DNA from: a virus
Strand: one strand, 5' to 3'
IMG/VR virus record: IMGVR_UViG_3300031251_000015
Span: 3,599 to 67,598 of that record
Length of the DNA stretch: 64,000 bases
Every line of letters begins with the position of its first letter. The stretch's first letter is position 1. The notes under the pieces are model-generated. The model saw nothing but the letters and a program-made list of their open reading frames with translations. It did not search any database and had not been told where the DNA came from. Shown here piece by piece: positions 1,408 through 60,745 of the stretch. A program made the position numbers and the translations under genes.

Positions 1408-2082
1408 TTATCCTTTCCATATAATATTTTTTATAATTCTTCCTATGGTTGCTTGAGAGACATTAAATATTAAAGATAAATCTTGTTGAGATATTTTTAA
1501 TATTTTATAATTTTCTCGAATTCTATCTACTTCATTTTTAGTTAATTTAGCCATGTGGTTCTTTTCTCCCATCTGACTATAAGATATTTTACCACCAAAA
1601 TCACTTGGTTTTTTCTTTCCTTTTGTACTATTTGATATTTTTTCACCAAAACTTTTTGGATGTTTATATCCCAAAGAACGCGTATTTCCTATAAGACTTT
1701 TCGATATTTTTTTCTTTTGTTCTTCAGTAATTGGATTATTATTTATATAATTACACACAGCATCTGATATTTTCTTTCGTAATTCTACAGTATATTCTTT
1801 TATAATTCTACCACCATCGCCACCATCTGACCTATTCATTCCTATCTTTGGGTTTGTAGAATTATAAAAAGATATCCAGTATATTTCTCGCTCATTTAAT
1901 AATTTTTTATCTTGTATATTATCTTCAATTATTTCTTTTTTAAATTGATTTTTACCATATTTTTTAATTTTTGCTTTAAGTATAATACCAGAACCTAAAT
2001 ACTTTGGGTTATTTATAACACTTTGCCCAATGTAAATAAGTCCAGTAGCAATTTCGGTTGTTTTATATATAATCATAAGCAC
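1408..2082 (-). mobile_element. GIY-YIG homing endonuclease with NUMOD3-like repeats and C-terminal HTH
   Basis: IIYKTT...IYIGQS, YLGSG, LNEREIYWI, N..DGGDGG; C-terminal AKLT...SQQDL..FNVSQATIGRI....W. Confidence 0.9.
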
Positions 2083-2088
2083 TCATAC

Positions 2089-2670
2089 TTAATTATTAGA
2101 TAAAAAGGAATCCATTTTTTGTTTAGTCAGATTAATTATATTTTCAGGTATTTCACATACTTGAGAGTTTCTGAAAACTATAGCAAGTAAATCAAAAGAT
2201 AGTTCTATGTTTATCTTGTTCGTGTCACCGTTATGAGCATCTAAAAAATGACAACTGGAGCACATACACACTAGGTTATTAGGTTCTACAAGGTATTCTG
2301 GATATTGTGATTTACGTAAAATATGATGAATATGTAAATCAGTTTGTTTTCCACAAAGTACACATTCATTATTGTCTCGTTTTTTTATATAATCATGAAC
2401 AGGTTTTACAAATGTATAATATAAAAATCTATGTCGATTAGTTGGAAAGGTATAACTGGCATGATTTTCTCTTTGCTTTAAACGTAACTCAGTATTATAA
2501 CAACCACAGCTTAATGTATCGCTGCCTAGATGGTCTGCTCTAACTGAAACTATATTGTTACATTTACATCTACATATCCAGTAAGAATGGCTTCCTTGCT
2601 TGGTCCAGTCACGTTTAACAGCTGTTAAAAACCCAAACGTTTGATTACGTCTGTTAATTAAACTACTCAT
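2089..2670 (-). mobile_element. HNH homing endonuclease
   Basis: N-terminal FGFLTA..YWICRCKC..SCGC module; RDNNECVLCG..LHIHHI...NLVCMCSSCH HNH core. Confidence 0.85.
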
Positions 2671-7825: not shown

Positions 7826-9760
7826 CTATTCAAATATCTCTTCTGGTTCTGTTAAACTTGATTTTTTATTTTCCACAAGAGAGGTAACACATCGTTTTTT
7901 ATCATGAAGTGGAAGTAAACCACCATCTTTAATACTTTCTTCTAATATTTTTATACTATTCTTATATCTAACAACTTCACATACAGTGTCATTTGTTTCT
8001 AAAATTAAACCACCAATATATCGTCTATTTTGCATTAAAGGAACTCCAGCTTGGCCACCCATATCTGGAGACATTGGTTGACCACCTTGTTGTGATTGAT
8101 CTGGCATCTGTTCAGCGCCCATATCTTCTGGTGACATTCCTTGACCACCCATATTAGAGAAATCTTCTCCACCCATAGGCATTCCTCCACCCATACCGCC
8201 CATTCCTTCCATGCCAGCTTGTGGTGCTGTAGGATCAATTTTAAATATCTCTTCAATTTCAGCGTCTGATTTATTTAATACAGTTTTAGCTACCCAACGA
8301 CGATTAGCTCCCCAACCAGTCCATTTAGCTGCTAAATCAAGTAAAGCACCATCGTTTTCTATTCTTGCTTTTTCTTCAACATAGGAAGGACGAGACATTA
8401 CTAAATTAAAAGATTTTAATTCAGTCTTACTTGAAATACCCCGAATAGCTAAATGAATAAAACACAAATCTTTAATAGCTTCAAGAAAATCTTCTTGAAT
8501 ATTTTGAATGGCCTTACTAAAAGTAACATTCTGCTGTGATAACATTCCCTTTGAAGATACATCACCTTCGTATCCAAGGAAAGATTTAGGAACTTTAAGA
8601 GCAGAAAATAGCCGATTATTTAAAAATTCTACATCCTCAATCTTACCGATATCAGCAACTCCAGCCAGTTGTTCTACTTTAGTTGCTCCATTTTTCTGCA
8701 TTGGAATATATAAGTTAGCATTCATATCAAGCAGCTGATAACGTTCATTAAGTTTACCAGTTGGATCAAAATACTCTTTTTTAGCTAATGCGTTTATCTG
8801 TTTCTTTACTATATTTTCAGCATCAGCGCCTTGATTGTTTCCTACATCAACGTAAAAAACTAATCTGGTTGGTGCCCTGTTTAATCTATAAATAATAAGA
8901 GAATCAAATAATAAATCAAGTTTCTTCCAAGTATCTACAGCTGCGTCTAACGGGCTTGTTCCATAAGGCATAAACAAACCATTTCCACGAAGTTTAAAGT
9001 GTAGCATTTCATATTTTAAGAAAGTTATTAAAGAATTTTCGTTTTCTTTTTGAGCACTATCACCTGTCATATAAGGTAACGATAGAGTATTAAGATTTAC
9101 ATATGGATTTGTAGTAGCTGAACTAACATTGGCATTCTGAACAGCGCTCTTTAACACGTCTATATCTTGAACGTATCCAATTAAACTTCCCTTATCTTCT
9201 AGTCTATAAACAGAAATAGCGTCTATTTCAGTTAAATCAGTTACTCCGCCTACTGAATCTAATTTTAACGCCACAAAATGGTCACCATATTTAACCATAT
9301 TTCGTATAATAGACCAACTTCTATAATTATTTATTCCTAAATCAGTTAATAATGTTTCAAGTTCATCTTGAATGTAACGAGAAGAAGAGTGGACACCAAC
9401 TACTTTACCTTGTTGATTTTTTTGAGTGGCTTCATTAGCATAAACATCAATGGCTGAAGCTATTAAATCAGTGTCCATTCTATCATACATAGTATATCTA
9501 CCATGTCGTAGAGTTTCTCGTTCAAGATATTTATGATAATTTTTTCCTAAACCTTCTTCATTAAAAATTGTTCCACGGCCCATTCCCTTTTTGGAAATTA
9601 CCGTTGGTTCTACTGCCGGTTTAGCTGATAGTTCTCTATTAGTGGTGCTTAATGCTTTTTCAATAGAGTTTCTCGCAACAAACTCTCCTGGTTTGCTGTT
9701 ACTAAATACTCTGCCAAGTGCCGTAAATATATTTTTAAGTTGGAAAGGTGAATCGGCCAT
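7826..9760 (-). CDS. Portal protein (gp20-like)
   Basis: YDRMD..IASAIDVYANEAT, PYGTSPL, LIIYRLNRAPTRLVFYVDVGN, LFSALKVPKSFLG. Confidence 0.95.
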   Translation of the reverse strand: MADSPFQLKNIFTALGRVFSNSKPGEFVARNSIEKALSTTNRELSAKPAVEPTVISKKGMGRGTIFNEEGLGKNYHKYLERETLRHGRYTMYDRMDTDLIASAIDVYANEATQKNQQGKVVGVHSSSRYIQDELETLLTDLGINNYRSWSIIRNMVKYGDHFVALKLDSVGGVTDLTEIDAISVYRLEDKGSLIGYVQDIDVLKSAVQNANVSSATTNPYVNLNTLSLPYMTGDSAQKENENSLITFLKYEMLHFKLRGNGLFMPYGTSPLDAAVDTWKKLDLLFDSLIIYRLNRAPTRLVFYVDVGNNQGADAENIVKKQINALAKKEYFDPTGKLNERYQLLDMNANLYIPMQKNGATKVEQLAGVADIGKIEDVEFLNNRLFSALKVPKSFLGYEGDVSSKGMLSQQNVTFSKAIQNIQEDFLEAIKDLCFIHLAIRGISSKTELKSFNLVMSRPSYVEEKARIENDGALLDLAAKWTGWGANRRWVAKTVLNKSDAEIEEIFKIDPTAPQAGMEGMGGMGGGMPMGGEDFSNMGGQGMSPEDMGAEQMPDQSQQGGQPMSPDMGGQAGVPLMQNRRYIGGLILETNDTVCEVVRYKNSIKILEESIKDGGLLPLHDKKRCVTSLVENKKSSLTEPEEIFE

Positions 9761-12471: not shown

Positions 12472-12951
12472 TTATCGTAGAGTCATTTCAGCATCAGTTC
12501 TTGTCTTAATAGCTTCAATTATATCAGTAAATCGCCCAAGATTTTTTGCTTTACCATCTACACAAATCTGAGCAAGCCATTTTTTATTCTTCTTGTCCCA
12601 TCCAACACCTTTAATACCTGAAGTGTTATCCGCTCGTAAATCAGTATTTATAGTATTAATTGCACAAGTAGCTTCACGAAGATTACTCCAACAATTATTA
12701 CTTGGGTTTCTATCAATATGGTCAATCAAATCTACCCAAGAGTTTGTCATATATAAAAAGGCTAACTGATGTGCTAAATATCCTATTCCATTTATTTTTA
12801 TTTTTTTATACCCATCAGGTCTAGCACATCCCACTATTTTACCAATTTTCCATTTTCCTCTATTTACCTTACTTATGAAATCTCCAGTTAATGGTAGATA
12901 TTCTAAAGTTTGTTTAAGTTCACTACTTGTAATAGTTCTTTGTGGTTTCAT
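12472..12951 (-). mobile_element. HNH endonuclease with AP2 domain
   Basis: YLAHQLAFLYM, IDHIDRNPSNNCWSNLREAT, NTSGIKGV.W....KWLAQI...LGRF. Confidence 0.9.
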
Positions 12952-13551: not shown

Positions 13552-14503
13552 CTACATTAGCTAATTCAGAAAATATTACTAATGGCCCGAATATCATTTT
13601 TATAAGTTCAAGAGCGTCAACAACATCCTTAACTTTAACACCACATTCATTTTTCAAAGTAAAAAGTAAATTATGAACCAATCTTGATGAAGCCTCTGGT
13701 GATTTAAGAAGCTCTAAAAGTTTTGTAATTATCATCTTATTCATATCAGAAATTAATTCATCGTCTGAATCTTTTAGTGTCTCTAATACTAATAAGAACT
13801 CCTGAAAAATAACAGGCCCATCCGTTACAGAATAAGCCTCATTACCATACAATCTCGACACATTTTCATAGCTTACATTTGTTATTCGTTCAGCGCCGTA
13901 AGTCATAGTAATAGTTGTAATTCCGTAGTTCAATACCATAGTAAAATAGGTATAAACTCTTGCGTAAATATCACGACCATTATCATCTGTTCCAACTATT
14001 CTTTTTGGATCAAACTTATCCATCGCCTGAATAATTTTTAATATAGCACTCTGAAATATCTCTTCATATGCTAATCCATGTTTATGTCTGGCATATTTGA
14101 ATATAACACCATCTATTAATGGATAGCAATAAGTTAAAAAATCATTCCTAGCATCATAGTCTTTTGTATCATGCCATTTTGTCCAGAGATACTTACCAAC
14201 ATCTTCAATAAAATAGTTATTAGACTTTTTGCCGCGTTTCTTTTTATTAGCAAGTTCCGGAAAGCGATCTGGGAATAAGAGATATGCTTTTAACAAAAAA
14301 CTATCCGAATACTTATCATTCGGATATTTGTCTAACATTTCTTTTATTATTCTTTTTTCCATGTATTCAACAGCCAATTTATCATACATCACTACACGAT
14401 AAGAGTGTTTGGTATCTCGTCCAATATCTTCCTTGTCAATCCCCAAATCTTCACACATATCAGCATATGGAGTTAGATTATCTTTATCATTAGTTGGTAT
14501 CAT
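13526..14503 (-). CDS. Phage sigma factor (sigma70 region 2; gp55-like late sigma candidate)
   Basis: ARNDFLTYCYPLIDGVIFKY...EEIFQSAILKIIQAMDKFDPKR...YTYFTMV. Confidence 0.72.
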   Translation of the reverse strand: MIPTNDKDNLTPYADMCEDLGIDKEDIGRDTKHSYRVVMYDKLAVEYMEKRIIKEMLDKYPNDKYSDSFLLKAYLLFPDRFPELANKKKRGKKSNNYFIEDVGKYLWTKWHDTKDYDARNDFLTYCYPLIDGVIFKYARHKHGLAYEEIFQSAILKIIQAMDKFDPKRIVGTDDNGRDIYARVYTYFTMVLNYGITTITMTYGAERITNVSYENVSRLYGNEAYSVTDGPVIFQEFLLVLETLKDSDDELISDMNKMIITKLLELLKSPEASSRLVHNLLFTLKNECGVKVKDVVDALELIKMIFGPLVIFSELANVGDSKEDSE

Positions 14504-15203
14504 TTGTCTCTTTCCATGACTTATTACTTATAATATTGTATATAGCACCTTGAGACATACCATACCAAGAAGCTAACTCTTTTTGAGATATATTAAATAT
14601 ACTATAGTTATTTTTTATGTTGTTTATTTGATTCCACGTAAGTTTAGCACTATTACTCTTATCTCCAGATAGTGCCACTCTATTTTTTTGTTTATGTTCT
14701 TCTGTACATTTTTTACCAGTATTAGCTGTTGATATTTTTTGTCTTGTTTCAGCTAATACTATTTTTCCTTTTTCAGATAAGGATATTTTTCTTTTATGTT
14801 CTTCTGATTTTATTTTACCTTTTTGAAACTTTGACATATTTTGTCTTGCTTCAAGTGAGATTATCTTATCTCGCATTCTTTGTTTAGTTTCTTCTGAAAG
14901 CTTATATCCACTAGGACCTTCTCCACCATCAGTAAAATTACATAAAGTATATCCATCAGACCTAAAAGTATGTATCCAATGAGTTTCTAACTTAAAGGCT
15001 TCATGTTCTTCTTCACAAGGTATTAATTCTATTCTTACGCAATCTCTACCATCTTTTTTAATTATACTTTTAGCCCAGCTATTTCTATGGGCCGAAAAAT
15101 CTAATGCTCTTTTTCTAGAACCCTTACCTACATAGAAAGGAGTTGTTCCATCTTTTCTATAATATATATAACAGTAAAAGCGTGTTTCTTGTTTCAAGAA
15201 CAA
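14490..15203 (-). mobile_element. GIY-YIG-family homing endonuclease with NUMOD3 repeats and HTH
   Basis: FYCYIYYRKD..PFYVGKG, EAFKLE, L.NFTDGGEG, SEETK/SEEHK repeats, SQKELA..YGMSQGAI.NI...KSWK. Confidence 0.88.
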
Positions 15204-18042: not shown

Positions 18043-18354
18043 TTTAGTGTCTCCTTACGCGGCATCCCGCAAAATAAGCAACCGATCTGGTCGCCAAGTT
18101 ACTAATCTGTCTTACATAGGTAGTATCGACCGTACCTACTATAACTTAATTCGAAAAAAATATTTATTTTTATTAAAGTTTTTGCTCAAGGTACACGATA
18201 ATAAGCATAGGCGTCTTCGGGAAGAGGAACCTAAAGGAGGAGATGGGAGATAGAAGTAGATAGAAATAAACCTAATACAAACCAAATCAAAGCAACGAAG
18301 TGAATGAAACGAAGTGGAATGAACGAGTTGTACAAGGTATATAATTAAGCGTAT

Positions 18355-19413
18355 ATGAATAATCTCAAGTTCAGGACAAGGTTCTCATTAAGGTTAAGAA
18401 CTGGTAAACGAGCTAAACTTCTAAACTCACGAACTAAAAAATCGGAGAAATGTAATCCTGTACTAATAATAGATTTAACATATATAGAAAACTTATTAAA
18501 CTCAAAAAAACAATATAAAAACTCTTCTCTGTACAATAAAGATACTGATGCTCTAATACAACGAATGTATGAGTGGCTATCTTCTGCTTTTAACTTAACA
18601 ACACCACAAGGTATTTTGTTTACTGCTGAAAAAGAGACAGAGTTCCTTAAACTATTAGATAAAGATATAATGTATGGAAACATTAAGAACATTATATTTT
18701 CTATTATAACTCAACAATCTATATCTAAACCTCTATGTATATTATCTGACAATCTCGAATTATGGTCTTTATCAGCACCTTCTACTAACCTGTCTTTTTT
18801 AGCTATCGACTCTAATAATAGGATGATTTACTATAATAACAAGACAGGATTAGATATTCTGTCAAAATTCATAGGTACATATAAGATAGTCAATAAGTTA
18901 GGATTAGACAGCTTAAAGTACGTTAGTTTACAATACCTGTACATCTTGTTGTTCTATATTCAGTTTACTAATAACAAACCTGACACTGACTTCTATTTTG
19001 ACAATGATTTTTTCAAGCAATTTACAAATAAACAGTTTTCTAAATCAAATGGATATGGATTAGAACTGATTACTGCTGCTCATAAGTTTTTAAGTTATGC
19101 CTTTCTGACCAAACCAGAGTTTATGGATTACTTCTTAATTGGAGAAATATCACACTATTCTCTTAATTTACAGAGATTAGTCAAACTTATGTATTTTGAT
19201 GTTCAGATATTAGATGCTATGAAACGAGCTTATCATACTAAAAGTTGTCCTGTGTTTATATCTAACCTTACCATACCCAGTATTAACCCTATTCTACCTG
19301 CCAATTTTACCTATTACCCTGAAAAAATTACAAAAATAGATATTGAAGTTCCTAAAACTGCCGATACTATTAGTGATATAGAGAGCTATGTCACTAACCT
19401 TTTAGGATTATAG
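18355..19413 (+). CDS. Degenerate 5'-3' exonuclease/PIN-like protein, probably inactive
   Basis: PVLIIDLT and KPLCILSDN.ELWSL align with NVLLIDGT and KQVILLSNDSDFLQL of the next gene. Confidence 0.5.
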   Translation: MNNLKFRTRFSLRLRTGKRAKLLNSRTKKSEKCNPVLIIDLTYIENLLNSKKQYKNSSLYNKDTDALIQRMYEWLSSAFNLTTPQGILFTAEKETEFLKLLDKDIMYGNIKNIIFSIITQQSISKPLCILSDNLELWSLSAPSTNLSFLAIDSNNRMIYYNNKTGLDILSKFIGTYKIVNKLGLDSLKYVSLQYLYILLFYIQFTNNKPDTDFYFDNDFFKQFTNKQFSKSNGYGLELITAAHKFLSYAFLTKPEFMDYFLIGEISHYSLNLQRLVKLMYFDVQILDAMKRAYHTKSCPVFISNLTIPSINPILPANFTYYPEKITKIDIEVPKTADTISDIESYVTNLLGL

Positions 19414-21184: not shown

Positions 21185-22080
21185 TGTCTGAAATTATCTT
21201 AAATTGCCCAAAATGTGCCGAACATGAGACTCCTAAACTCTACGTGAACGTGGAGTTAGGATGTTTTAATTGTTTTCGTTGTGGATTTAGTGGAAAACTA
21301 CGTAAATTATACCAATTTCCAGAATTAGTATCATCTTTGGAAGATAAAATCTCATTATCAGAGTTTACCAAGCTTAAATCATTTAAGCCTATGGAGCTTA
21401 CTGATATTGACGCATTAGAGGACTTAAATCCAGTAAGAGAATTGGTATATTCTGACCCACAATACACTTATTTAATGAACAGAGGCTGGACGGATGCTTT
21501 AATCTTCCTTTATAAACCTCTTTTATCATTAAACCCTAAATATAAGGATAGAGTTGTTCTTCCAGTCATAAAAAACGAAAAAATTATATATTTTACTGCT
21601 CGTTCTATTGAGCAAAATCCAGCAATGAAGTATAAAAATCCAGCAATTCCTCGAAAAGATGTTATTTTTGAGTCTATTTTACCAGAAAATCAGTTTTTCA
21701 AGGAAACTTTGGTAATTTGTGAGGGATTTTTTGATGCTTTTAAAATACCTAATTCCATAGCTCTTTTTGGCAAGACAATTACATCTGAAAATGAGCTAAA
21801 TATACTCAAAAAAGCATCAAATAAGACAGAAATCTATGTTTGTCTTGATTTTGGTGCAGAACATTGGATTGAAGGTATCTGTAAAAAACTTCATGACTGG
21901 ATGCCTAATAAAAAAATCCACTTTATCGATACTAGTAAATATGAGGATAAGGATTTGGGTAAGTTATCTGAAGAATTGGACTCGTTTGAACTTATGTCAT
22001 GGATTAAAGAAAATAGTAAGGAATATTCGACAATTTCGTTAACTGATACTTTACGAAGCAAATTAAGGATGTATAATTAA
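21184..22080 (+). CDS. DNA primase
   Basis: CPKC...FNCFRCG zinc finger, YLMNRG, RVVLP, FTARS, ICEGFFDA TOPRIM, CLD, KDLG. Confidence 0.9.
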   Translation: MSEIILNCPKCAEHETPKLYVNVELGCFNCFRCGFSGKLRKLYQFPELVSSLEDKISLSEFTKLKSFKPMELTDIDALEDLNPVRELVYSDPQYTYLMNRGWTDALIFLYKPLLSLNPKYKDRVVLPVIKNEKIIYFTARSIEQNPAMKYKNPAIPRKDVIFESILPENQFFKETLVICEGFFDAFKIPNSIALFGKTITSENELNILKKASNKTEIYVCLDFGAEHWIEGICKKLHDWMPNKKIHFIDTSKYEDKDLGKLSEELDSFELMSWIKENSKEYSTISLTDTLRSKLRMYN

Positions 22081-22126
22081 ATGTATATGTTAGAGACTTT
22101 AATGAACAAGTTTACGTAGGTTTTTA

Positions 22127-22204
22127 GTACCTGTAGCATAGTTCGGCCTAATGCGGTGGCCTCTAACTCCATGAGCGCAGGTTCAAATCCTGTCAGGTAC
22201 ACCA
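22127..22204 (+). tRNA. tRNA with CTA anticodon (amber suppressor)
   Basis: GTACCTG/CAGGTAC acceptor plus ACCA; GCAT/ATGC D stem; GTGGC-CT[CTA]AC-TCCAT anticodon arm (C31-U39 mismatch); 4-nt variable loop; GCAGG-TTCAAAT-CCTGT T arm. Confidence 0.88.
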
Positions 22205-22279
22205 ATCGTCCTCCTTGATGATTAAATGACTGTATTGCTTTATTAATACATGACATTTAATCAAAAAGGAGATTTTATT

Positions 22280-22906
22280 ATGTCAACTTCTATAAATACC
22301 AATGAAATCAAACAACCACATGCTCCACGCTTTACACCAGAACAAAAGGAAGCATGGCAAAAAGCAAAAGAATTATTAAAAACTAGTATGAATTACCAGT
22401 CTAAACGAGCACTTCATATCGCAATGTCTCAATTACGATTAGAAGGTGGCCGAAAGCATAGGGGTCCGATTGAGGCTCTTCCGAAGAACGAAACAAAGCT
22501 ACAACAACATAATGCTGAAATAGTTAATATAAGACTTAATGAACGTGTAGCTGAATGGAAGGAATATTTAACTAACCCAGGTTCGCGTAAACTGTATATT
22601 ATTGTTAGTCCTGATTTAGATACCTCACAATCAGCCGTACAAGCCTCCCATTGTGCCGCAGACTTTGTTAAGCAACATCCACTCGCTCCTTGGATTAACG
22701 GTACCATGGTGCTTCTAACGATGGATACTGATAAAATAAAAGGTAAAAATGCGTTAGAAATCTTTTGTAATGATTATTTCTGGTATGTTGATTACAAAAC
22801 TTGCTGGAAAGAACCAGATCAGGATAACAGAATAACTGCTGTTGCTATGTTATGTGACTTTGGAAATGACCGAATAGGAAAGCAGCGAGGAGTTAAGTTG
22901 CTATAA
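22280..22906 (+). CDS. Pth2-like peptidyl-tRNA hydrolase domain fused to a helical N-terminal domain
   Basis: KLYIIVSPDL...AVQASHCAADF...W.NGTMVLL...WKEPD....TAVA. Start placed at ATG 22280 (AAAGGAGA RBS). Confidence 0.7.
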   Translation: MSTSINTNEIKQPHAPRFTPEQKEAWQKAKELLKTSMNYQSKRALHIAMSQLRLEGGRKHRGPIEALPKNETKLQQHNAEIVNIRLNERVAEWKEYLTNPGSRKLYIIVSPDLDTSQSAVQASHCAADFVKQHPLAPWINGTMVLLTMDTDKIKGKNALEIFCNDYFWYVDYKTCWKEPDQDNRITAVAMLCDFGNDRIGKQRGVKLL

Positions 22907-22912
22907 TTAAGT

Positions 22913-24112
22913 TTGGAAACTAATATGGAATCGATCCCAAAACTGTTATTGGTAGAAAACTTTAAATGGCTACTTGGTCAGCTTCATGCTTTTGATGACC
23001 CTCAGTTTACTTATGCTTCAGTAGGTAGACAAGACTTACGTGGTGGTGTACGTAGAGAATATCGGTATGAAAAACATTACGATACATACTACAAGGGTTC
23101 AATTATAACAAAAAGCCCGTCACCAACCCAAGTAGCTATTGGCAATACTCAAATAGAATGTGACGAATGGGACATTACTCACCCAAAGTTCAAAGATCCA
23201 GAACTTAAAGAAAAATACCCTAAACCAGATACTCATTATACCGTATTAGTTACTAGCAGACGTAGTTTACAAAACAAAACAGCACAACGTTGTTATGTTT
23301 CTTGTGATTGTATGGATTTTAATACTACTTTTAAAGAAGAATTATTAAAATATGGATATACTAATGGGACTACTCTACAAGGAACCGGCAAGAAAAAACT
23401 AGCACCGGCAATTTGTAAGCATATATACTCTGTGTTAATGCGTGAATATATGTTCTATATTAACACGGAAGATTCTGAACAGCTAACTCCATTAATTACT
23501 TGGCCGAAAGAAGCGCCACCAGAAAAAGAACAAGTACCTACACACTATGATTATGAACCTATTGAATATGAAGAAGAGCCAGAAGAAGGAATCCCACCAA
23601 TTCAACCTTTAGGAAAACCAAAACGAGGAAGAATACCAAAGACTCCTGAACAAAAGAAAACTGAATACGAAAAAATTATAAAACAGTCTCTAAAATTCAT
23701 TGCTAACACTATGCCAGGAGGAATTAACGCTTACAAGAACACCAGACAAGGCGATACTTCCTATAAAAAATATAAGTTTATGGTTAAAAAGTATTTCCAA
23801 GGTTGGGTTATTGTTTACTCTAATCCTCTGCTTAATCCATTTAGAGACAAAGCAAGAGAAAAAGAAATTGTACCACTAATAAATAGAACAGCCAGAGGTA
23901 TGCTTCCGTTTGGTGATTCTACGGTAGTGTATACAAAGTATTTTTCAAAAGATGAATTGATGGGGTTTATCAGGTCTGAAACAAAGGAAATACAACCTAA
24001 TCAAATTGAAAAACTAAATAAAATACTTAAAAAGTATACCTTAACTGAATCATTAGAGGTTTTAGATAGTGAATCTTCTTCTATATTAACTACTTTATTA
24101 GGACTTTACTAA
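22913..24112 (+). CDS. SWIM zinc-finger protein
   Basis: VSCDCMDF...ICKHI; late-type box upstream. Confidence 0.6.
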   Translation: METNMESIPKLLLVENFKWLLGQLHAFDDPQFTYASVGRQDLRGGVRREYRYEKHYDTYYKGSIITKSPSPTQVAIGNTQIECDEWDITHPKFKDPELKEKYPKPDTHYTVLVTSRRSLQNKTAQRCYVSCDCMDFNTTFKEELLKYGYTNGTTLQGTGKKKLAPAICKHIYSVLMREYMFYINTEDSEQLTPLITWPKEAPPEKEQVPTHYDYEPIEYEEEPEEGIPPIQPLGKPKRGRIPKTPEQKKTEYEKIIKQSLKFIANTMPGGINAYKNTRQGDTSYKKYKFMVKKYFQGWVIVYSNPLLNPFRDKAREKEIVPLINRTARGMLPFGDSTVVYTKYFSKDELMGFIRSETKEIQPNQIEKLNKILKKYTLTESLEVLDSESSSILTTLLGLY

Positions 24113-24965: not shown

Positions 24966-25317
24966 AAAATTAAATCTTTCAGACTTTTTAGCGCAAAGCT
25001 ACATTACATCTCCTTTAACGTTTCAACCGAAGGAGTGTGATAATATGAGTTTTAGTTTGATAGAATTTTATAATATCATGTCAGCACACGTTGGTTCATT
25101 TATTATAGACGAAATTACCTATTCGGCTATAATACCGTCAACAAGTAACCTTTATTTTTTCAGGGAGTCAGACAATGACGAATTTATTTTGTTATTTGAC
25201 CCAATCAACGATATAAAAAAGAAAAATAATAGCGATTTTACTGTATTTTATTATCCTAATACTATTATTAATATTTCGTTAAGGGAATCAAATGTCAAAG
25301 AAGACAGGAATATATAA
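24958..25317 (+). CDS. Hypothetical protein
   Basis: ORF in operon. Confidence 0.5.
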   Translation: MIKKLNLSDFLAQSYITSPLTFQPKECDNMSFSLIEFYNIMSAHVGSFIIDEITYSAIIPSTSNLYFFRESDNDEFILLFDPINDIKKKNNSDFTVFYYPNTIINISLRESNVKEDRNI

Positions 25318-25921
25318 AATTACTAATATATTAACAGGAGATTTATATATTGGTTCAGCAACAGATATAGTAAAAAGATGGTGGCTACACAAATACCAAT
25401 TATTAAAAAATATTCATCATTCTACTTATCTTCAAAACGCTTATAATAAATATGGAAAGAATACTTTTATATTTGAAGTATTACTTTATTGTGAAATAAA
25501 AGATTTACTATTTTTTGAGCAACGAGCAATAGATACATATAATCCAGTATATAATATGTGTAAAATTGCTGGATCTAATAGAGGTTTGACTATATCTGAT
25601 GAGCACAAACAAAAAATAGCAAAAGCTAACTTAAAAAATACACACAGACTTGGCAAAGTTCTCTCAAAAGAACACATACAAAAAATATCAGAGGCAAATA
25701 GTGGTGAAAATAACTATATGTTTGGCAAGAAACACTCTAAAGAAATGAGACAAAAAATGTCAAACAATAGTAAAGATAAATCAGGAGAGAATAACCCAAT
25801 GTTTGGAGTTCATAGATTTGGTAACTTAAATCCCATGTTTGGAAAGCACCAATCAGAAGAAACTAAAAAGAAAATATCAGAAGCAGCAAAGAATAGAAAA
25901 AAGGATACTAATAATGTCTAA
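25292..25921 (+). mobile_element. GIY-YIG homing endonuclease with NUMOD3 repeats
   Basis: GIYKITN...YIGSA, LQNAYNKYG, EQRAID..PVYN, repeated GENNPMFGKKHS.E. Confidence 0.92.
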
Positions 25922-34448: not shown

Positions 34449-34730
34449 ATGGAACCAACACAACAAGAACAGTCAGTATCTAATGAAATAACAGAGATGT
34501 CTTTACAAGAAATGATGTTTCTTGTAAGTGCTTGTTTTTATACAACCGCTGCCGAAATAGGCCAACAAGCTTTAGAAGCTAAAAATGAAGCACTTGTAGT
34601 TATTAAACATGCTGACGTTCCAGATATAGCAAAAGAAATTGAAGCGGCCGGCAAAGAAATAACTGATTTTAAAACAAAAGAAACAAAATATGATGGCACG
34701 GCGGAACCTTTAACTCCAGAAGAACCATAG
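34449..34730 (+). CDS. Small acidic hypothetical protein (TAG stop)
   Basis: ORF in operon. Confidence 0.55.
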   Translation: MEPTQQEQSVSNEITEMSLQEMMFLVSACFYTTAAEIGQQALEAKNEALVVIKHADVPDIAKEIEAAGKEITDFKTKETKYDGTAEPLTPEEP

Positions 34731-34766: not shown

Positions 34767-36161
34767 ATGTTGATTGACAAGACTACGATTCAGTATATAA
34801 ATCCAGCACTTAAGTTTTCAATAAAGAAATATTTTCCCTTGAAGGAGAAGACGTTGTTATACGACGCCTTGCTTTTTTGTAGTGTGATATCTAAAACTCC
34901 AATGCGCTGTTCTTCTGCTGATTTAGAAGCCTTTAGTAATTTAATGATTAACTGTAAAGAACTTGATATATCTTTAGAAAAATATTTAAGTTGTGCTTAT
35001 GCTTATATTAAGAAATATTCAACTCCTGGGCATAGGCTCGGAATATCTTATTTTCTAAATGATTCAGTAATAGAGTATTGTGGCTCTATGTTGGAAAAGT
35101 TCACTAGCTCCTCTTTGTTTTTAGAGCAAGTAAAAAATGATATTCTGTCTACAGAAAAAAGTATAAGAGAATTAATGACGGAAACTTCAATATCATACGA
35201 GCAATCTTTTGGGAATATGCTTAAAAATAAAAAAATAAGTTCATTCTTTTTAGCGTATAAGAAGTTTTGTAATTCAGTGTTAGTTAAAGACTACAATTCT
35301 GAATATTTTATGACATTAGTTAATATACTAGAGCCATTCTTTACGTATATTTTAGCTAAAAATAATGTATATAGTCCTCATAGGATACAAAAGTGGAATA
35401 ATTCTAAAATAGAAGATTTTAGTTTTTGTTCAGTGTATTTTACAGATAGATACATAACTAACGAACTTATAGAAGAATGCCTAGGCAACGAAGCTACTGA
35501 AAATGGAACAAAGTTACACAGTATTTTTGAATCTATTTTTACTAGATATAACAAAAATAAAGTAAAAAATCTAAAAAATATAGCATTAAAATATTTTAAA
35601 TCTACAGCTTATTTGGATATAAAGAAAGAACTACCTGAACATATGTCGTTTATAGAGGAATTATTTACAAAAGATGATTCTATTTTTTATTCCTTGCTTG
35701 ATGAAAATACACAAGTTTTAGTAGAACATACAATGAATGCTAATCTGGCTGGATTTGAGTTTTATGGAACAGCAGATTTGATTTTTATAAACAATAACAA
35801 AGCTTATATATTTGACTATAAATCATCAAAATTAGATGAAAAGTATTTAACAAAAAATAACGACAAGTATAATAAACAAATTAGTCTTTATGCTAAACTA
35901 TTAAAAGAAGAACATCCAGAACTTATTAGCATAACTGGAAAAATTATATATACAAGAGGATTACTACATCCGTTTGATAAATTAAATGATAATATTCATA
36001 TAGAACGAGCATTAGACATAGAAAAAATTAAAAAAACATTAAAATCAGGCATTCTTATGCCAAATACTCGCAATTGTTTTCTCTGTAGACACCCGGCTTG
36101 TAAGTTTAGAACACGACCTAGTATTTGGGCAGAGGATGGTTCGCGAAAAATAAGCAATTAA
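34767..36161 (+). CDS. PD-(D/E)XK exonuclease, Cas4/RecB-like
   Basis: FSFC, GTKLHSIFE, GTADLI...IFDYKS, QISLY, C-terminal CFLC...C. Confidence 0.8.
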   Translation: MLIDKTTIQYINPALKFSIKKYFPLKEKTLLYDALLFCSVISKTPMRCSSADLEAFSNLMINCKELDISLEKYLSCAYAYIKKYSTPGHRLGISYFLNDSVIEYCGSMLEKFTSSSLFLEQVKNDILSTEKSIRELMTETSISYEQSFGNMLKNKKISSFFLAYKKFCNSVLVKDYNSEYFMTLVNILEPFFTYILAKNNVYSPHRIQKWNNSKIEDFSFCSVYFTDRYITNELIEECLGNEATENGTKLHSIFESIFTRYNKNKVKNLKNIALKYFKSTAYLDIKKELPEHMSFIEELFTKDDSIFYSLLDENTQVLVEHTMNANLAGFEFYGTADLIFINNNKAYIFDYKSSKLDEKYLTKNNDKYNKQISLYAKLLKEEHPELISITGKIIYTRGLLHPFDKLNDNIHIERALDIEKIKKTLKSGILMPNTRNCFLCRHPACKFRTRPSIWAEDGSRKISN

Positions 36162-39879: not shown

Positions 39880-42800
39880 ATGACAGATCTTCTAAACAAA
39901 GAAGCTTTACAGTATTTAGTAAGTAAAAACATATCACCAGAAAGCGCATCCGAGGCACAATTATCCGATGCTAAAGCTTACAGTAACTGCTATAATTGGT
40001 ATATTGAAACGCAAAAGGTTCTACCAAATACAGCAGATTTAGCATCAAGTATTTTTGTACAGAAATATGCCCTACACAATACGGTTGGTATTTGTTTAGA
40101 ACAGACTCCTGAAATGATGTGGGATAGGATTGCTAACGTACTTGCCGATGAAGAAATTGCTACTAATCTTGTTAATACAGATAGATCCTATTGGTTTAAG
40201 CAATTCAGAGAGATTTTGACTAACTGGAAGTATAGTCCTCAAGGTTCTGGTCTTTATGCTCTTGGCAATCCTTATGTTAAAGCCAGCGCAAGTAATTGTT
40301 TTGTTGTTAATTCTCCAAGTGATAGTTTAGAATCTATTTTTGATACAGCTAAGGATATGGCTCGTATTTATGCTGCCCGTGGTGGTTGTGGAACTAATAT
40401 ATCCAATCTTCGTCCATTTGGTGCTACTACTAATAATGCCGCCAAGTCTTCTACTGGTGCCGCAAGTTTTATGGACTTTTTTAGTCATGTAACTTCTACT
40501 ATTGGACAAGCTGGTAGACGTGGTGCTCTGATGCTTTGTATGGAAGTTCATCACCCTGATATTTTTAGATTTATTGAAATGAAACAAGATTTGGATAAAC
40601 AATGGTTCTTTGAAGAGCTTGCCGAATCTGGTGTAAACATTAATGATTGGAAATATTCAAGTATTGCCGACCGTCTTAAATCTACTTCTCATGCCAATGT
40701 ATCTGTTCTTATCGATAATCAGTTTATCAATGCCGTAGAAAATGATTTAGACTACGAACTTTACTACGAGTTTGAGAATAACCAGTATCCAAGGATTTCA
40801 CAATGGGTTAAGGCGCGAGATATTTGGGATAAACTAATTGAAGGTGCTACTAATTCAGCTGAGCCTGGAATCATTAACATGGAATTGATTAGGAAAGAAA
40901 GTCCAGCAGATTGTTATTCTGAACCAACTGACTATATTATTGGCGATAAGAAAGTTACTTACTCGTTTAAGACTACCGCCACTAACCCTTGTATTTCCGG
41001 CAATAGTTATGTGTTAACTGATAGTGGATATAAACAAGTTAATACTCTATTAAATACTTCATGGAAAGCTACTATTAACGGTAATAATTATGATGCATCA
41101 GCTTTCTGGGAAACTGGATATAAACAAATCTATAATGTGACGCTAGCTAATGGAACAACAATAAAAGCCACATTAGACCACAAGCTTCAGTTAATTGATG
41201 ACTCCTGGGTAACAGTAGAAGATTCATTAAATAAAATATTAAAAAATAACGTAGTAGAAACATACAATGTTTTAGACATATCTTCTGATGATTTTAAAAG
41301 TGGTTGGCTAGTTGGTTCTATTGTTGGAGATGGCTATTACACAACTACTTCCGGTTCAGCTGTAATGTATTGGGGTAAATGTGCTAATGAACTAGCGGAA
41401 TATGCTAACACTTGTTTAAATAGAACTACAACGTTAACTAAAACAGAAAATAAAATAAAAATAAGAACCAATACAATTAATGACTTACTTTCTTCTATTA
41501 TTGAAATAGACACAAAAGAAATTAAACCAGCTATATACAGTAAATCAAAGGAGTTTATCTCTGGCTTTTTAAGTGGATTATTCGATGCAGATGGTAGCGT
41601 TCAAGGAACTGCTCTAAAAGGATATAGCGTTAGGTTATCTCAATCTAAAATATCTCTTATTGAACATTGTCAACGATTACTTCATATGCTTGGTGTTTCA
41701 AGCAAGGTTTGTAAAAATAGACGGTTAGAAAATGAAAAATATTGGGCACAAGGAAATAAAATATATATAAGTAAAGCACAACATGAATTACTTATTTCAA
41801 GTTCTAATTTACTTTCCTTTAATTCGGCCATTCATTTTATAACTACTTATAAGTATAACAAACTTAATACAATTATTGAAAATACTAATTTCTATATGTC
41901 AAAACCAAAAACAAAGGTAATTAGTATTGTATTATCAGGCGTAGAACCTGTTTACGATTGCACTGTTGATACTGTTCATTGCTTTGATTTAAACGGTATT
42001 ATAGCACATAATTGTGGTGAACTTCCATTATCCCCTGGTGATAGTTGTTGCTTGGGAACTCATAATCTTCCAGCTTTCGTTATCAATCCATTTAAAGATA
42101 ACGCAAAGTTTGACTGGGCTGGATTTGAAAAAGTAGTTATGCTGTCAACTCGCGCTCAGGACAACATTAAAGGTATTGATATTGGTCTTGTCCCACTTGA
42201 AATAAACAAAGTATCAGCTATCCTTGGTAGACGTATTGGTATGGGGTGTAATGGCCTCTCTGACTGTCTTGCTATGCTGGGAATACGATACGACTCTGAC
42301 AAGGCTATTGAGGTTTCTGGACGTATCTATGAGCTACTACGCAATACAGTATATGCTTCATCGATTCAGTTGGCAGAAGAAAAAGGTGCCTTCCCAATTT
42401 ATAACGCTGAAAAGGAAAAAAATAACCCATTCCTGTTAAGACTACCAAAAGAACTACAAAATAAGCCACGCAGAAACATAGCTTGTTTGACAAATGCTCC
42501 TAATGGCTCTATGTCTATTGAAATGAACGGTTCTTCGTCAGGTATTGAGCCTGTATTTGAAACTGACGAGTATATGCGTAATGTAAAGCGTTCTGGAACC
42601 AATGATTTCGTTCAATTTAAGGTTCGTCATCAGGCTATTGAAGATTGTGTAAATGCTGGTGGAAATCCTAATATATTTGTTAAGGCAAATGATGTTAGTG
42701 GAGAAATGCGTATTAAACTTCAGGCCACTATTCAAAAATATATTGACCATGCTATTTCGGTAACTACAAATCTTCCACAAGGAACTACCCAAGAAGTAGT

Positions 42801-43470
42801 GGGTAGTCTATATCTAAAAGCGTTTAAAGCTGGTTGTAAGGGCTTTACCGTATACGTTGATGGTTGTAGAACTGGTGTATTAAATACTATAAAGACTGAA
42901 CCAAAAGTACACAAGGTAACAGATAGACCTAAAACAACTGATGTAGATGTGTTTAAGACCAAATATAAAGATCGTTCATATATGATTTTAGTTGGAAAAA
43001 TTAAAGGTGTACCATGTGAAATCTTTGGAGGAGAAGAGACTGGATTAAGTCTTCCCACCAAATATAAATCTGCTACTTTAACCAAGAAATCAAGAGGGCA
43101 CTACACTCTTAATATTCAATTATCAGAAGACCCAGAAGATATTTTAAAGGTTAATAATTTAGGAAATCTTTTTCCGGCAGGGGATGTAATAACTATCGCC
43201 AGAATGATTAGTTTATCTTTACGAAATGGTATCCCAATTTCCGAAATAGTAGAACAATTAGCTAAAAGTGGCTCTACACTATATGATGCCCCGACAGTAT
43301 TTGCTAGAGTTCTTAAAAATTATATTCCAGATGAAGAGATTATTTCAAAAGAAAAGGCTAAAAATAAACCATGTCCAGAATGTGGTAGTGAGCTAAATTA
43401 TAAGCGTGAAAGTGGTTGTTTAACTGAAATATGTAGTTCATGTAGTTATACTAATTCTAAATGTGGATAA
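39880..43470 (+). CDS. nrdJ: Class II (B12-dependent) ribonucleotide reductase with intein
   Basis: SNCFV, GGCGTNISNLRP, GRRGALM, TNP[intein]CGE, RRIGMG, APNGSMS, SSGIEP, IDHAISVTTNLP, CKGFTVY.DG; C-terminal zinc ribbon. Confidence 0.92.
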   Translation: MTDLLNKEALQYLVSKNISPESASEAQLSDAKAYSNCYNWYIETQKVLPNTADLASSIFVQKYALHNTVGICLEQTPEMMWDRIANVLADEEIATNLVNTDRSYWFKQFREILTNWKYSPQGSGLYALGNPYVKASASNCFVVNSPSDSLESIFDTAKDMARIYAARGGCGTNISNLRPFGATTNNAAKSSTGAASFMDFFSHVTSTIGQAGRRGALMLCMEVHHPDIFRFIEMKQDLDKQWFFEELAESGVNINDWKYSSIADRLKSTSHANVSVLIDNQFINAVENDLDYELYYEFENNQYPRISQWVKARDIWDKLIEGATNSAEPGIINMELIRKESPADCYSEPTDYIIGDKKVTYSFKTTATNPCISGNSYVLTDSGYKQVNTLLNTSWKATINGNNYDASAFWETGYKQIYNVTLANGTTIKATLDHKLQLIDDSWVTVEDSLNKILKNNVVETYNVLDISSDDFKSGWLVGSIVGDGYYTTTSGSAVMYWGKCANELAEYANTCLNRTTTLTKTENKIKIRTNTINDLLSSIIEIDTKEIKPAIYSKSKEFISGFLSGLFDADGSVQGTALKGYSVRLSQSKISLIEHCQRLLHMLGVSSKVCKNRRLENEKYWAQGNKIYISKAQHELLISSSNLLSFNSAIHFITTYKYNKLNTIIENTNFYMSKPKTKVISIVLSGVEPVYDCTVDTVHCFDLNGIIAHNCGELPLSPGDSCCLGTHNLPAFVINPFKDNAKFDWAGFEKVVMLSTRAQDNIKGIDIGLVPLEINKVSAILGRRIGMGCNGLSDCLAMLGIRYDSDKAIEVSGRIYELLRNTVYASSIQLAEEKGAFPIYNAEKEKNNPFLLRLPKELQNKPRRNIACLTNAPNGSMSIEMNGSSSGIEPVFETDEYMRNVKRSGTNDFVQFKVRHQAIEDCVNAGGNPNIFVKANDVSGEMRIKLQATIQKYIDHAISVTTNLPQGTTQEVVGSLYLKAFKAGCKGFTVYVDGCRTGVLNTIKTEPKVHKVTDRPKTTDVDVFKTKYKDRSYMILVGKIKGVPCEIFGGEETGLSLPTKYKSATLTKKSRGHYTLNIQLSEDPEDILKVNNLGNLFPAGDVITIARMISLSLRNGIPISEIVEQLAKSGSTLYDAPTVFARVLKNYIPDEEIISKEKAKNKPCPECGSELNYKRESGCLTEICSSCSYTNSKCG
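40990..42012 (+). mobile_element. LAGLIDADG intein (341 aa) in the RNR active-site NP|CGE motif
   Basis: Starts CISGNSYVLT, has KATLDH, LVGSIVGDG and FLSGLFDADGS, ends VYDCTV...NGIIAHN before C+1. Confidence 0.93.
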
Positions 43471-58479: not shown

Positions 58480-58881
58480 ATGACAACAGCTAAAAAAACA
58501 ACGGCAATGAACTCGACTTACTCTGGTATTTCGTTTCCTCCAAGGAAGGGCGCTGGAACAGGATTTTTTGCTATGTCAACTGATACAGACTTAATTACTA
58601 ACAGCATTCAGGTTCTTTTAAACACTAAAAAAGGGTCAATGCCAATGGTGCCCTCGTTTGGAAGCAGCGCACAGGATTTATTATTTGAGCCAATAAATGA
58701 TACTACACAAGGGTTAATAGTAAGTGCCATACAAGCAGATATAACTAAGTGGGAACCCCGTGTTTCCGTTGTTCAAATCATGGCGGCAAGCACTGACAAC
58801 ACCCGTATATTTCAGCTTACCCTACAAATAAAAGCCACAGGTCAAATAATTACTCAAACAATTCCCTTATCAGCTATGTAG
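58480..58881 (+). CDS. Baseplate wedge subunit (gp25-like)
   Basis: LI.NSI..LLNTKKG..PM.PSFGS...LLFEP...I.KWEPRV. Confidence 0.92.
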   Translation: MTTAKKTTAMNSTYSGISFPPRKGAGTGFFAMSTDTDLITNSIQVLLNTKKGSMPMVPSFGSSAQDLLFEPINDTTQGLIVSAIQADITKWEPRVSVVQIMAASTDNTRIFQLTLQIKATGQIITQTIPLSAM

Positions 58882-59713: not shown

Positions 59714-60163
59714 ATGAATGGGTTAGAAGCATTTAGAAATATTTCAATTGGAATGGACGCACTGATTGATAAGTTAGTAAAAGCAAACGATAGTGCCTTT
59801 CCTCCATATAATTTGTATAAAGTTAATGATAACAATTTTAAAATAGAGCTTGCTATGGCCGGATATCTAAAAGAGGATATTAGTATATCTGTCGAAAATG
59901 GTATCTTACTAATTTCAGCCAATAAAGCTTCTAATTTATATAGTCTTGTTACTGATAAAACTTCTTTTGATATAAAAGATAAAGATAATAATAATGTATG
60001 TCCAATACATAATGGCATTGCTGGTAGATGGTTTAATAAGAGTTTCCAGTTAGCCGATGATATTCTGGTAATAGGCGCATCTTTTAAGGAAGGTATTTTG
60101 ACAATAGATTTAACACAGCCAGAACCTCCTCCACCTACTACAAAAACTATAGCTATTAAGTAG
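59714..60163 (+). CDS. Small heat-shock protein (Hsp20/IbpA-like)
   Basis: FPPYNL, IELAMAGY.KEDI, HNGIAGR.F..SF.LA, A.FKEGILTI. Confidence 0.93.
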   Translation: MNGLEAFRNISIGMDALIDKLVKANDSAFPPYNLYKVNDNNFKIELAMAGYLKEDISISVENGILLISANKASNLYSLVTDKTSFDIKDKDNNNVCPIHNGIAGRWFNKSFQLADDILVIGASFKEGILTIDLTQPEPPPPTTKTIAIK

Positions 60164-60538: not shown

Positions 60539-60745
60539 ATGATAAGTGAGTTTCTTATTATATATGTTCCTACTGGTTCTTTTATTAGAGATATAGATAA
60601 CCTCCATCCATTAATTTTTATGACTTCTTCTGAAGCTAATAATTATTTAAATTATATATTTAAAGCAAATAACAAAGTTAAAGCATATACAAAACAATTA
60701 GAATATACTAAAAATGATTTTGTTATTATTGAAAGAAAAAAATAA
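60539..60745 (+). CDS. Small paralog family member
   Basis: FLIIYVPTGSFI...LIF.TS.EA...DFVIIE. Confidence 0.55.
   Translation: MISEFLIIYVPTGSFIRDIDNLHPLIFMTSSEANNYLNYIFKANNKVKAYTKQLEYTKNDFVIIERKK

Follow-up and report, generated by a model that had tools for sequence, protein, structure and literature searches.

The stretch of DNA analysed here, hereafter the window, comprises 64,000 nucleotides (nt) of the IMG/VR virus record IMGVR_UViG_3300031251_000015 (positions 3,599 to 67,598 of that record), and the element in question is a transfer RNA (tRNA) gene with the amber-suppressor anticodon CUA, followed on the same strand by a gene for a protein that is predicted to resemble peptidyl-tRNA hydrolases of the PTH2 type. 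The features of this locus, numbered as in the window, are listed below.

22050 to 22077, plus strand: sigma-70-type promoter-like site, TTTACG, 16 nt and TATAAT, matching 10 of 12 consensus positions
22081 to 22912, plus strand: 832-bp insertion with the promoter tail, the tRNA gene and the hydrolase gene, delimited by comparison with six related loci
22127 to 22204, plus strand: tRNA gene with anticodon CUA, supported by ARAGORN, Rfam, contigs of public runs, arginine tRNA look-alikes and covariation
22280 to 22906, plus strand: gene for a protein of 208 amino acids (aa), denoted P0035, supported by homologues, an AlphaFold 2 (AF2) model and Foldseek
22280 to 22588, plus strand: part encoding an N-terminal four-helix domain of no known fold
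22589 to 22903, plus strand: part encoding a C-terminal PTH2-like alpha/beta domain, assigned with Foldseek

ARAGORN places the anticodon at tRNA position 37 (cta, 22163-22165), and this tRNA is the sole one predicted in the window as well as in the whole 67,598-nt record. The Rfam model RF00005 matches the same gene over model positions 1-71 with 56.8 bits (E = 1.4e-9; the gathering score is 29), which is the only Rfam match of the window. The acceptor stem is formed by seven Watson-Crick pairs (G1-C72, U2-A71, A3-U70, C4-G69, C5-G68, U6-A67 and G7-C66) and is followed by the discriminator A73 and an encoded CCA end. U8, A14, G18G19, U33, A37 and C38 are present, the T-loop reads UUCAAAU, the variable loop has 4 nt and the anticodon stem contains a C31/U39 mismatch. 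Within the anticodon loop of 7 nt, CUCUAAC, the CUA triplet directly follows U33 as in an amber suppressor, and the residues regarded as universal in tRNAs (U8, A14, G18G19, U33, G53-U54-U55-C56, A58 and C61) are all in place. The full cloverleaf with encoded CCA, U33, A37 and a CTA anticodon that an initial annotation had read from the letters is confirmed by the agreement of ARAGORN and Rfam.

Contigs from four public rhizosphere sequencing runs, all of 2019, span the tRNA gene with zero differing letters. Runs X1 and X2 are possibly the source of the record itself, and the matching contigs of the other two, X3 (record 12, 22077-22437) and X4 (record 16, 22074-22224), are further short independent ones; all four runs may stem from one campaign. 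Because none of the four runs carries a variant at the anticodon, a sequencing error at this place, which the initial annotation had considered, is unlikely. Exact-pattern scans for this tRNA gave no hit in viral contigs and one unrelated tRNA-like stretch (L136) in metagenome contigs, and no copy beyond the four rhizosphere runs was seen in them. Compared with GenBank phages, the tRNA alone yielded weak partial matches only (to Met, Asn and Gln tRNAs and to one UUA tRNA), and the 3-kb region around it no match by DNA similarity; plasmids gave nothing useful.

The gene of P0035 starts 75 nt past the tRNA with an ATG that is preceded at a distance of 8 nt by AAGGAG; the mechanical list of open reading frames (ORFs) begins this frame at 22250. 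Among 41 metagenome homologues, 30 were used for the AF2 model, which has a mean predicted local distance difference test score (pLDDT) of 83.8 and a predicted template modelling score (pTM) of 0.78. In a Foldseek search of the PDB with the C-terminal domain the ten best matches are all Pth2 structures, with probabilities of 0.99-1.00, template modelling (TM) scores of 0.54-0.63 on the target and sequence identities of 15-18%. The structures matched include 3erj, 1q7s, 1xty, 2zv3 and 1rlk (AF2095, Bit1, Pth2 of S. solfataricus, MJ0051 and TA0108, respectively), with 1wn2 (PH1539) at rank 13. The C-terminal domain is hence modelled with a PTH2 fold. The N-terminal domain, when modelled alone, reaches a pLDDT of 76.3 and gives no Foldseek match at E ≤ 0.001.

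At the sequence level this relationship is distant. P0035 has no PHROG match, remains below the gathering score of PF01981 (23 bits) and finds nothing among PDB chains with either a single or a profile query. PF01981 is detected, with E 0.043 at best, among 30 family members in 5, the viral relative L215 scores 22.2 bits against the cut-off of 23, and among 40 short relatives sampled from the 150 best, 24 match PF01981 at E ≤ 0.01 and 5 exceed 23 bits. A profile search collects 740 cluster representatives at E ≤ 0.001. Residues K, Q, H, N, T, E-P-D, N and T are invariant in the family. P0035 is best described as a predicted, divergent PTH2-type peptidyl-tRNA hydrolase-like protein, whose C-terminal domain shares its modelled fold with archaeal and eukaryotic PTH2 (PF01981) but which adds a conserved N-terminal domain of 100 aa and is too divergent for Pfam.

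All eight full-length relatives of P0035 in IMG/VR, six of them distinct, are preceded on the same strand by a CUA tRNA at a distance of 113-201 nt; a ninth locus is a partial match of 47 residues without a tRNA. A profile of the C-terminal domain extends the family to 35 viral loci, of which 29 possess a same-strand suppressor tRNA within 2.5 kb (21 CUA, 7 UUA and 1 UCA); many of these loci are duplicates, and their suppressor tRNAs amount to 20 distinct sequences. Suppressors thus make up 29 of the 105 tRNAs at hydrolase-family loci versus 5 of 182 in six whole phage genomes. In the standard-code genomes G006 (313 kb, 49 tRNAs), G007 (210 kb, 40 tRNAs) and G008 (213 kb, 14 tRNAs), in which TAG ends 17-23% of the ORFs, it is the single CUA tRNA that adjoins the hydrolase gene. 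The 230-kb relative G001, estimated to be 93% complete and carrying 30-34 tRNAs, has neither a CUA tRNA nor a hydrolase gene. In G008, whose terminase is 55% identical to that of the window phage, the pair is located elsewhere, namely within a cluster of tRNAs at about 64.4-65.2 kb. As the pair follows the primase gene in the window and occupies another place in G008, it seems to move as a unit.

The family reaches into recoded phages as well. With P0035 as query the only GenBank phages matched are 15 Lak megaphage records (34-37% identity over the C-terminal domain), and in Lak-B5 and Lak-A1 a UUA tRNA is followed by a 127-aa ORF and then by the PTH2-like ORF. A shorter relative as query additionally matches ME3, RAS14, CM1, Xoo-sp13, XacN1, Hallingskeid and five uncultured huge-phage records. 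The genes between tRNA and hydrolase in low-GC phages belong to no Pfam family of note and include no release factor (RF) or aminoacyl-tRNA synthetase (aaRS). From these comparisons the tRNA and the PTH2-like gene appear to constitute a conserved, mobile two-gene module, present in standard-code and in recoded giant phages. A further instance of the pairing is found at 7228-7705 of L003 (LR745208.1, an uncultured phage of 485 kb), where a PTH2-like match is followed after about 140 nt by a UUA tRNA. Other translation genes may stand nearby: the hydrolase clusters of XacN1 (L235, 830-1273) and Xoo-sp13 (L234, 1139-1585) contain, as annotated, a 148-aa 'glutamyl-tRNA amidotransferase' and an NAD+ synthetase, and that of RAS14 (L233, 4275-5624) contains an annotated valyl-tRNA synthetase.

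In an alignment (A4) of the 20 distinct suppressor tRNAs from hydrolase-family loci (L137-L236 and the window), 96.2% of the cells at stem positions are paired, and each of the 21 pairs shows compensatory changes. Not one of 500 shuffles attains any of the observed covariation measures, and sliding the partners against each other reduces pairing to 35-46%. Apart from variants of the anticodon itself, the anticodon loop YUCUAAM is invariant among the 20 sequences. The covariation argues that the suppressor tRNAs beside the hydrolase family are under selection. Positions 31 and 39 do not pair in 11 of these tRNAs, where they are mostly A/C or C/A, and the other stems pair in 95-100%; the C31/U39 mismatch of the window tRNA is therefore a shared trait and no private defect, and the earlier suggestion that it may weaken the tRNA is not supported.

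Hydrolase genes of this family are in several phages interrupted or preceded by UAG. In all four cultured phages inspected (ME3, RAS14, Xoo-sp13 and XacN1) the PTH2-like frame begins with ATG, two to three codons and TAG before the annotated start. The CUA tRNA of ME3, which has C at position 33 where U is expected, is found about 450 nt upstream of the hydrolase gene; the CUA tRNAs of RAS14 and Xoo-sp13 were located by an Rfam search. Among low-GC metagenomic versions, 11 distinct ones contain a TAG in frame some 31 codons into the PTH2-like domain and 8 have a TAG 6-12 codons before it. In L228 (about 2465-2857) another stop, TAA or TGA, occupies the place where L227 and many relatives have the in-domain TAG. 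The window subfamily, consisting of the window and six distinct relatives, differs in this respect from the cultured jumbo phages: its hydrolase ORFs have no TAG within or directly before them and the tRNA is directly upstream, whereas in the cultured phages the gene is UAG-led and the tRNA is adjacent only in ME3. The N-terminal domain of the window protein also differs from that of the cultured jumbo phages. Since the hydrolase gene of the window contains no TAG, a simple role of the tRNA as key for this gate does not apply here, and within the subfamily the coupling appears to be one of position only.

The insertion lies between the primase stop and a conserved gene for a 399-aa protein (22913-24112). 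Six related IMG/VR loci (L004-L009) keep the order UvsX, SSB, exonuclease, primase and 399-aa gene onward, and in all six the homologue of 22913-24112 follows the primase homologue within about 14-30 nt. No tRNA was found within 6 kb in seven related loci. As a single IMG/VR query the window primase recovered no relative; the related loci were recovered by an alignment query. Upstream of the tRNA the sequence is TATAATTAAAT, which includes a sigma-70-like -35 element. The TATAAT hexamer at 22072-22077 is about 50 nt 5' of the tRNA, the site lying inside the last primase codons. The site is the sole sigma-70-type match in 21800-23100, where shuffled sequences average 5.1 such matches, so that its presence is no proof of function. 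From this promoter-like site to the end of the hydrolase gene no terminator-like site is predicted. Exact copies of the motif TATAATTAANNGTATATG stand at 22072-22089 and at 18340-18357, the latter in front of ORF 18355, with which the rightward replication cluster begins; the motif may represent a shared promoter type, two exact copies being too few for significance. The T4 late box TATAAATA is found 12 times in the window, where 17.2 copies are expected, and none of these lies immediately before the tRNA; the late-type box that had been placed about 45 nt upstream is better regarded as the TATAAT of a sigma-70-type site.

In order to compare the tRNA body with cellular tRNAs, one genome per prokaryotic species was scanned for tRNAs that agree with it in acceptor stem, U8-C11, T-loop and A73, the remainder being free. 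Among the 80 cellular matches listed, 78 are tRNA-Arg (anticodons ACG 33, CCG 26, GCG 10 and UCU 9), 2 are tRNA-Ile and none is tRNA-Glu. Best among the matches listed are tRNA-Arg(CCG) of Bacillota metagenome-assembled genomes (L073, L090 and L109) with 58 of 75 positions identical. Acceptor stem, A73 and U8-C11 are identical to those of the window tRNA and the T-arm is nearly so, and the loop CUCCGAC has C32, U33, C34, A37 and C38 in common with CUCUAAC. Differences are the anticodon (CUA instead of CCG), the D-arm (GGC in the window tRNA versus GGA, with A20, in tRNA-Arg), the variable loop (4 versus 5 nt) and position 31 (C versus A). The tRNAs of G001 nearest to the window tRNA are those for Arg with anticodons UCU (54/78) and ACG (51/78), its tRNA-Glu reaching 50/78. 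With a looser pattern, viral contigs yield three Met/Ile(CAU), one Ile, two Arg and two Lys tRNAs. The body of the window tRNA accordingly appears closest to tRNA-Arg and not to tRNA-Glu, at variance with the Glu-like reading of the initial annotation.

A body of the Glu type has, by the rules for E. coli, U11-A24, U13-G22, no residue 47 and an anticodon YUC; the window tRNA has C11-G24 and U13-A22, and only the 4-nt variable loop and the pairs G1-C72 and U2-A71 fit. ARAGORN labels the gene tRNA-Pyl from the anticodon alone. A tRNA-Pyl is characterized by a very short D-loop, a variable loop of 3 nt and an anticodon stem of 6 bp, as opposed to a D-loop of 11 nt, a variable loop of 4 nt and an anticodon stem of 4 bp plus mismatch here. 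An origin of CUA through loss of one U from the loop of a UCU tRNA-Arg was also rejected, as the shifted register would not pair. Arginyl-tRNA synthetase (ArgRS) of E. coli recognizes A20 and C35; the window tRNA has C at position 20 and U at position 35, and arginine is therefore unlikely. U35 together with A73 favours mischarging by lysyl- or glutaminyl-tRNA synthetase (LysRS, GlnRS), and by the E. coli rules Lys or Gln would be a likelier residue than Arg or Glu.

By PHROGs annotation the record belongs to a distant T4-like myovirus with a GC content of 33%. Annotated genes encode tail sheath and tube, major head protein, prohead protease, portal, large terminase, UvsX, SSB, primase, NrdA, an SbcCD-like protein, a gp25-like wedge protein, Hsp20 and several homing endonucleases; RF or aaRS genes are absent from the window annotation. 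To the closest cultured phages its terminase is only about 29% identical. Genes of the record are collinear with 125,367-187,134 of G001 and with about 47-108 kb of G008, and an identical primase protein is also recorded on a contig of 233,172 nt. The record thus represents only about 30% of a roughly 230-kb genome, and statements on coding hold for its 67.6 kb.

With a mechanical ORF caller (longest first, overlaps dropped, at least 50 aa) genetic code 11 yields 80 ORFs with a coverage of 94.2% and code 15 likewise 80 ORFs with 94.3%. The 80 ORFs end in TAA (59), TAG (20) and TGA (1); among ORFs of at least 80 aa, TAG ends 15 of 67. Four annotated genes that end in TAG are the following.

7826 to 9760: portal
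46929 to 48728: SbcC/gp46-like
58480 to 58881: gp25-like wedge
59714 to 60163: Hsp20

The earlier description of a phage that is not recoded, with TAG ending these four genes among others, is correct for the record, code 15 adding no coding. Twelve TAG-ended ORFs were read through, with X for TAG, and searched against G001 and G008; none of 15 homologue alignments (9 to G001, 6 to G008) continues beyond the TAG. For the portal, the SbcC-like protein, a 278-aa ORF and the gp25-like protein, whose C-termini align well, the homologues have their own TAA or TAG no more than 0-5 codons away. One same-frame pair only is separated by a single TAG, 34449-34730 and 34767-36161, and it was rejected as a fusion, its homologues being two genes in four relatives with other stops or another frame between them. 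In a comparison directed at backup stops after TAG and at avoidance of TAG between same-frame neighbours, the counts are 8 of 162 for TAG versus 60 of 460 for TAA in module-bearing genomes and 5 of 41 versus 11 of 190 in G001, small numbers in which TGA resembles TAG. To judge from its reading frames, TAG is a normal stop in the record and the phage is not TAG-recoded.

TGA is nearly unused as a stop in the record, with one instance in 80, the ORF 60745-61035 in an ATGA overlap. In relatives it ends 15-34% of the ORFs (32 of 218 in G008, 47 of 278 in G001 and 107 of 318 in G006). The codon is not used in frame either, code 4 adds no coding, and the trinucleotide as such is not depleted overall (ratio 0.95). 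Five homing-endonuclease or HNH genes were annotated with PHROGs.

25292 to 25921, plus strand: homing-endonuclease/HNH gene
1408 to 2082, minus strand: homing-endonuclease/HNH gene
2089 to 2670, minus strand: homing-endonuclease/HNH gene
12472 to 12951, minus strand: homing-endonuclease/HNH gene
14490 to 15203, minus strand: homing-endonuclease/HNH gene

The first of these is missing from its place in six related loci and constitutes a second lineage-specific insertion, 2.4 kb from the module. In the NrdA-like ORF at 39880-43470 (plus strand, 1196 aa) the PHROG matches are confined to residues 57-342 and 705-1193, which suggests that an element such as an intein is inserted between these two blocks; the alignment with G001 covers 489 residues only and that with G008 the full length.

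Among known systems, ME3 (KU935715.1, 'tRNA-OTHER anticodon CTA') and XacN1 resemble the window phage in being large, in having TAG as a stop and in carrying a CUA tRNA, and ME3, XacN1, RAS14 and Xoo-sp13 each encode a relative of the PTH2-like domain. The XacN1 report (PMC5852040) describes two CUA tRNAs without a target and, separately, a peptidyl-tRNA hydrolase, and that on Atu_ph07 (PMC6102473) a UCA tRNA and two putative hydrolases. In the code-15 phages, i.e. Lak, crAss-like and the clades of Borges et al., a phage tRNA reads a stop codon, as the window tRNA is expected to do, but in-frame TAGs occur throughout their late genes and none in the window record; the partner tRNA of Lak is moreover UUA and not CUA. 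According to the Borges et al. preprint (bioRxiv 10.1101/2021.08.26.457843), which treats suppressor tRNAs, release factors and synthetases, the TGA-recoded Jade operon combines a suppressor tRNA with TrpRS and RF1. Like the window locus it clusters a suppressor tRNA with protein genes for termination or charging; in the window, the partner is a hydrolase.

PTH2 proteins of jumbo phages have been explained differently so far. Iyer et al. 2021 (PMC7824862) interpret them as ribosome rescue after tRNA cleavage, and the report on Klebsiella phage RaK2 (PMC3622015) accounts for its Pth2 likewise by ribosome rescue. The word 'suppressor' occurs in the text of neither, and 'hydrolase' is absent from the main text of the Borges et al. 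preprint and from a 2026 jumbo-phage survey (PMC13037316). A full-text literature search, confined to main texts, returned no paper linking a suppressor tRNA with a hydrolase. The window tRNA itself is of a known but unexplained kind, and it is the coupling in a module that is of interest. Beyond the initial annotation, the record is seen to be a fragment and the tRNA to be half of a conserved module, which changes what needs explaining.

The reading we favour, with a probability of only about 45%, is that a functional UAG-reading tRNA travels in a conserved mobile module together with a divergent PTH2-type hydrolase and serves controlled, low-level decoding of UAG. It starts from what is observed, namely the gene pair, its conservation, the fold of the partner, the standard code and the UAG gates of other phages. 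In the window phage the tRNA and the hydrolase gene are probably co-transcribed, since a sigma-70-like promoter precedes the tRNA, the gap is 75 nt and no terminator is predicted between them. Elsewhere, a UAG at codon 3-4 or inside the hydrolase gene would allow the enzyme to be made only while UAG is decoded. The module would set up limited UAG decoding in the infected cell and would leave the code of the phage unchanged, as TAG remains its normal stop. The hydrolase may act on tRNA esters that arise from UAG decoding, such as drop-off peptidyl-tRNA or, alternatively, peptidyl-tRNA from ribosomes that have run past a stop, or the suppressor's own ester, and would thereby clean up after the suppressor or restrain it. 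The timed read-through and the pre-recoding state proposed in the initial annotation gain some comparative support from the link to Lak and from the UAG-gated hydrolase genes. A more far-reaching version appears unlikely to us, in which the module is a self-contained, horizontally mobile stop-codon-handling device whose hydrolase is dedicated, physically or kinetically, to the stop-reading tRNA, for chain release or feedback on charging, by which a phage would set the reading of UAG, UAA or UGA independently of host release factors and which would be an enabling step to full recoding as in Lak.

Several observations weigh against the favoured reading. The window hydrolase gene has no TAG inside or before it, and no other convincing UAG target was found in the 67.6-kb record; the sole ATG-x-TAG leader with a Shine-Dalgarno sequence, at 17930, is antisense to the SSB gene, has a low-complexity product and was judged a chance occurrence. 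The CUA tRNAs of XacN1, RAS14 and Xoo-sp13 are not adjacent to the hydrolase gene, and 6 of the 35 viral loci are devoid of a suppressor tRNA within 2.5 kb, one of these having only 502 nt of upstream flank. Extensions after TAG have a median of 10 codons (n = 20) versus 8 after TAA (n = 59), i.e. there is no adaptation to read-through, and the share of ORFs ended by TAG in module-bearing genomes, 17-23%, compares with 15% in G001. P0035 has no Pfam match even at E 10, and the lysine of the motif SQKAVQASH, kept in most relatives, is replaced by Ser in P0035 and by Gln in the relatives nearest to it. That the tRNA is charged and that read-through takes place are, like the substrate of the enzyme and the benefit to the phage, inferred in the favoured reading.

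The gated hydrolase genes can also be understood the other way round. The tRNA would then be a key, i.e. a gate or timer, for a few deliberate UAG codons, with targets in the roughly 165 kb outside the record and the hydrolase merely the best-known gated gene. A UAG at codon 3-4 in all four cultured carriers and within or before the gene in many metagenomic versions speaks for such a role, as does the limited span of the record, which is collinear with no more than 125-187 kb of G001 (230 kb). However, the TAG-free subfamily of the window and its six relatives retains the tRNA directly upstream, where a key without a lock should be lost, no gated gene is present in the available 67.6 kb, and in XacN1 an in-silico read-through of 18 amber stops gave no target, according to the XacN1 authors (PMC5852040); we regard this explanation as rather unlikely. 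Still less probable is that the module is a remnant of, or a stepping-stone to, TAG recoding and idles or is preparatory here. The same PTH2-like family does stand beside suppressor tRNAs in the TAG-recoded Lak megaphages (15 GenBank records), and low-GC carriers may have many in-frame TAGs, such as the 562-aa ORF of L229 with 15. In the Borges et al. preprint a standard-code relative of TGA-recoded phages has 4 TGA among 146 stops (bioRxiv 10.1101/2021.08.26.457843), a possible precursor state to which the record with 1 in 80 is similar. Yet the skew of the record is in TGA and not in TAG, four large module-bearing genomes are fully standard-code without depletion of TAG stops, and retention of the module down to 48% protein identity argues for a present function.

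A pair aimed at the host or at competing phages, which by read-through of UAG-terminated host genes or competition with RF1 would disturb host translation and whose hydrolase would shield that of the phage, is likewise quite improbable. The tRNA's own sigma-70-type promoter beside replication genes, typically early or middle, and a hydrolase that, in the manner of an antidote, is always coupled to the tRNA are in line with this idea, but the phage ends 25% of its own ORFs in TAG and would also be hit. The retention of a suppressor by phages with 15-25% TAG-ended genes would be explained if tRNA and hydrolase formed a UAG-specific release or rescue device at the ribosome, i.e. RF1-independent termination. 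Such a device would equally account for the UUA partner tRNA of Lak phages, UAA being the commonest stop, for the loss of the ArgRS marks without gain of those of another synthetase, and for the conserved N-terminal domain fused to the hydrolase in the window subfamily. It is nevertheless very improbable: to our knowledge no PTH2 acts inside the ribosome, the acceptor arm of the tRNA would have to contend with a 100-aa domain for the same space in the A-site, gates at codon 3-4 need insertion of an amino acid and not release, and the N-terminal domain has no fold match hinting at binding of RNA or ribosome. Equally remote is the notion that the gene is a tRNA-Arg copy, decaying or neutral, that acquired CUA by drift of its anticodon and is carried along, uncharged, with its neighbour. 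The Arg-type body without A20 and C35, the 31-39 mismatch and the missing target would suit such a pseudogene, but the universal positions and the CCA end are intact, 20 differing tRNAs keep their structure and a stop-reading anticodon, and a pseudogene would not hold CUA where the partner proteins share only 48-56% identity.

The CUA tRNAs of phages that use TAG as a stop, such as XacN1 and ME3, have been annotated for years without explanation, and the conserved partner described here makes this puzzle testable, the module being accessible in culturable phages. If it is true that the hydrolase acts on the products of the suppressor or controls it, as the favoured reading has it, the module would show how a virus can afford a tRNA that reads stop codons and how a change of the genetic code can begin without killing the genome in which it takes place. 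Genetic-code expansion could likewise profit from a suppressor tRNA and a control enzyme that have naturally co-evolved.

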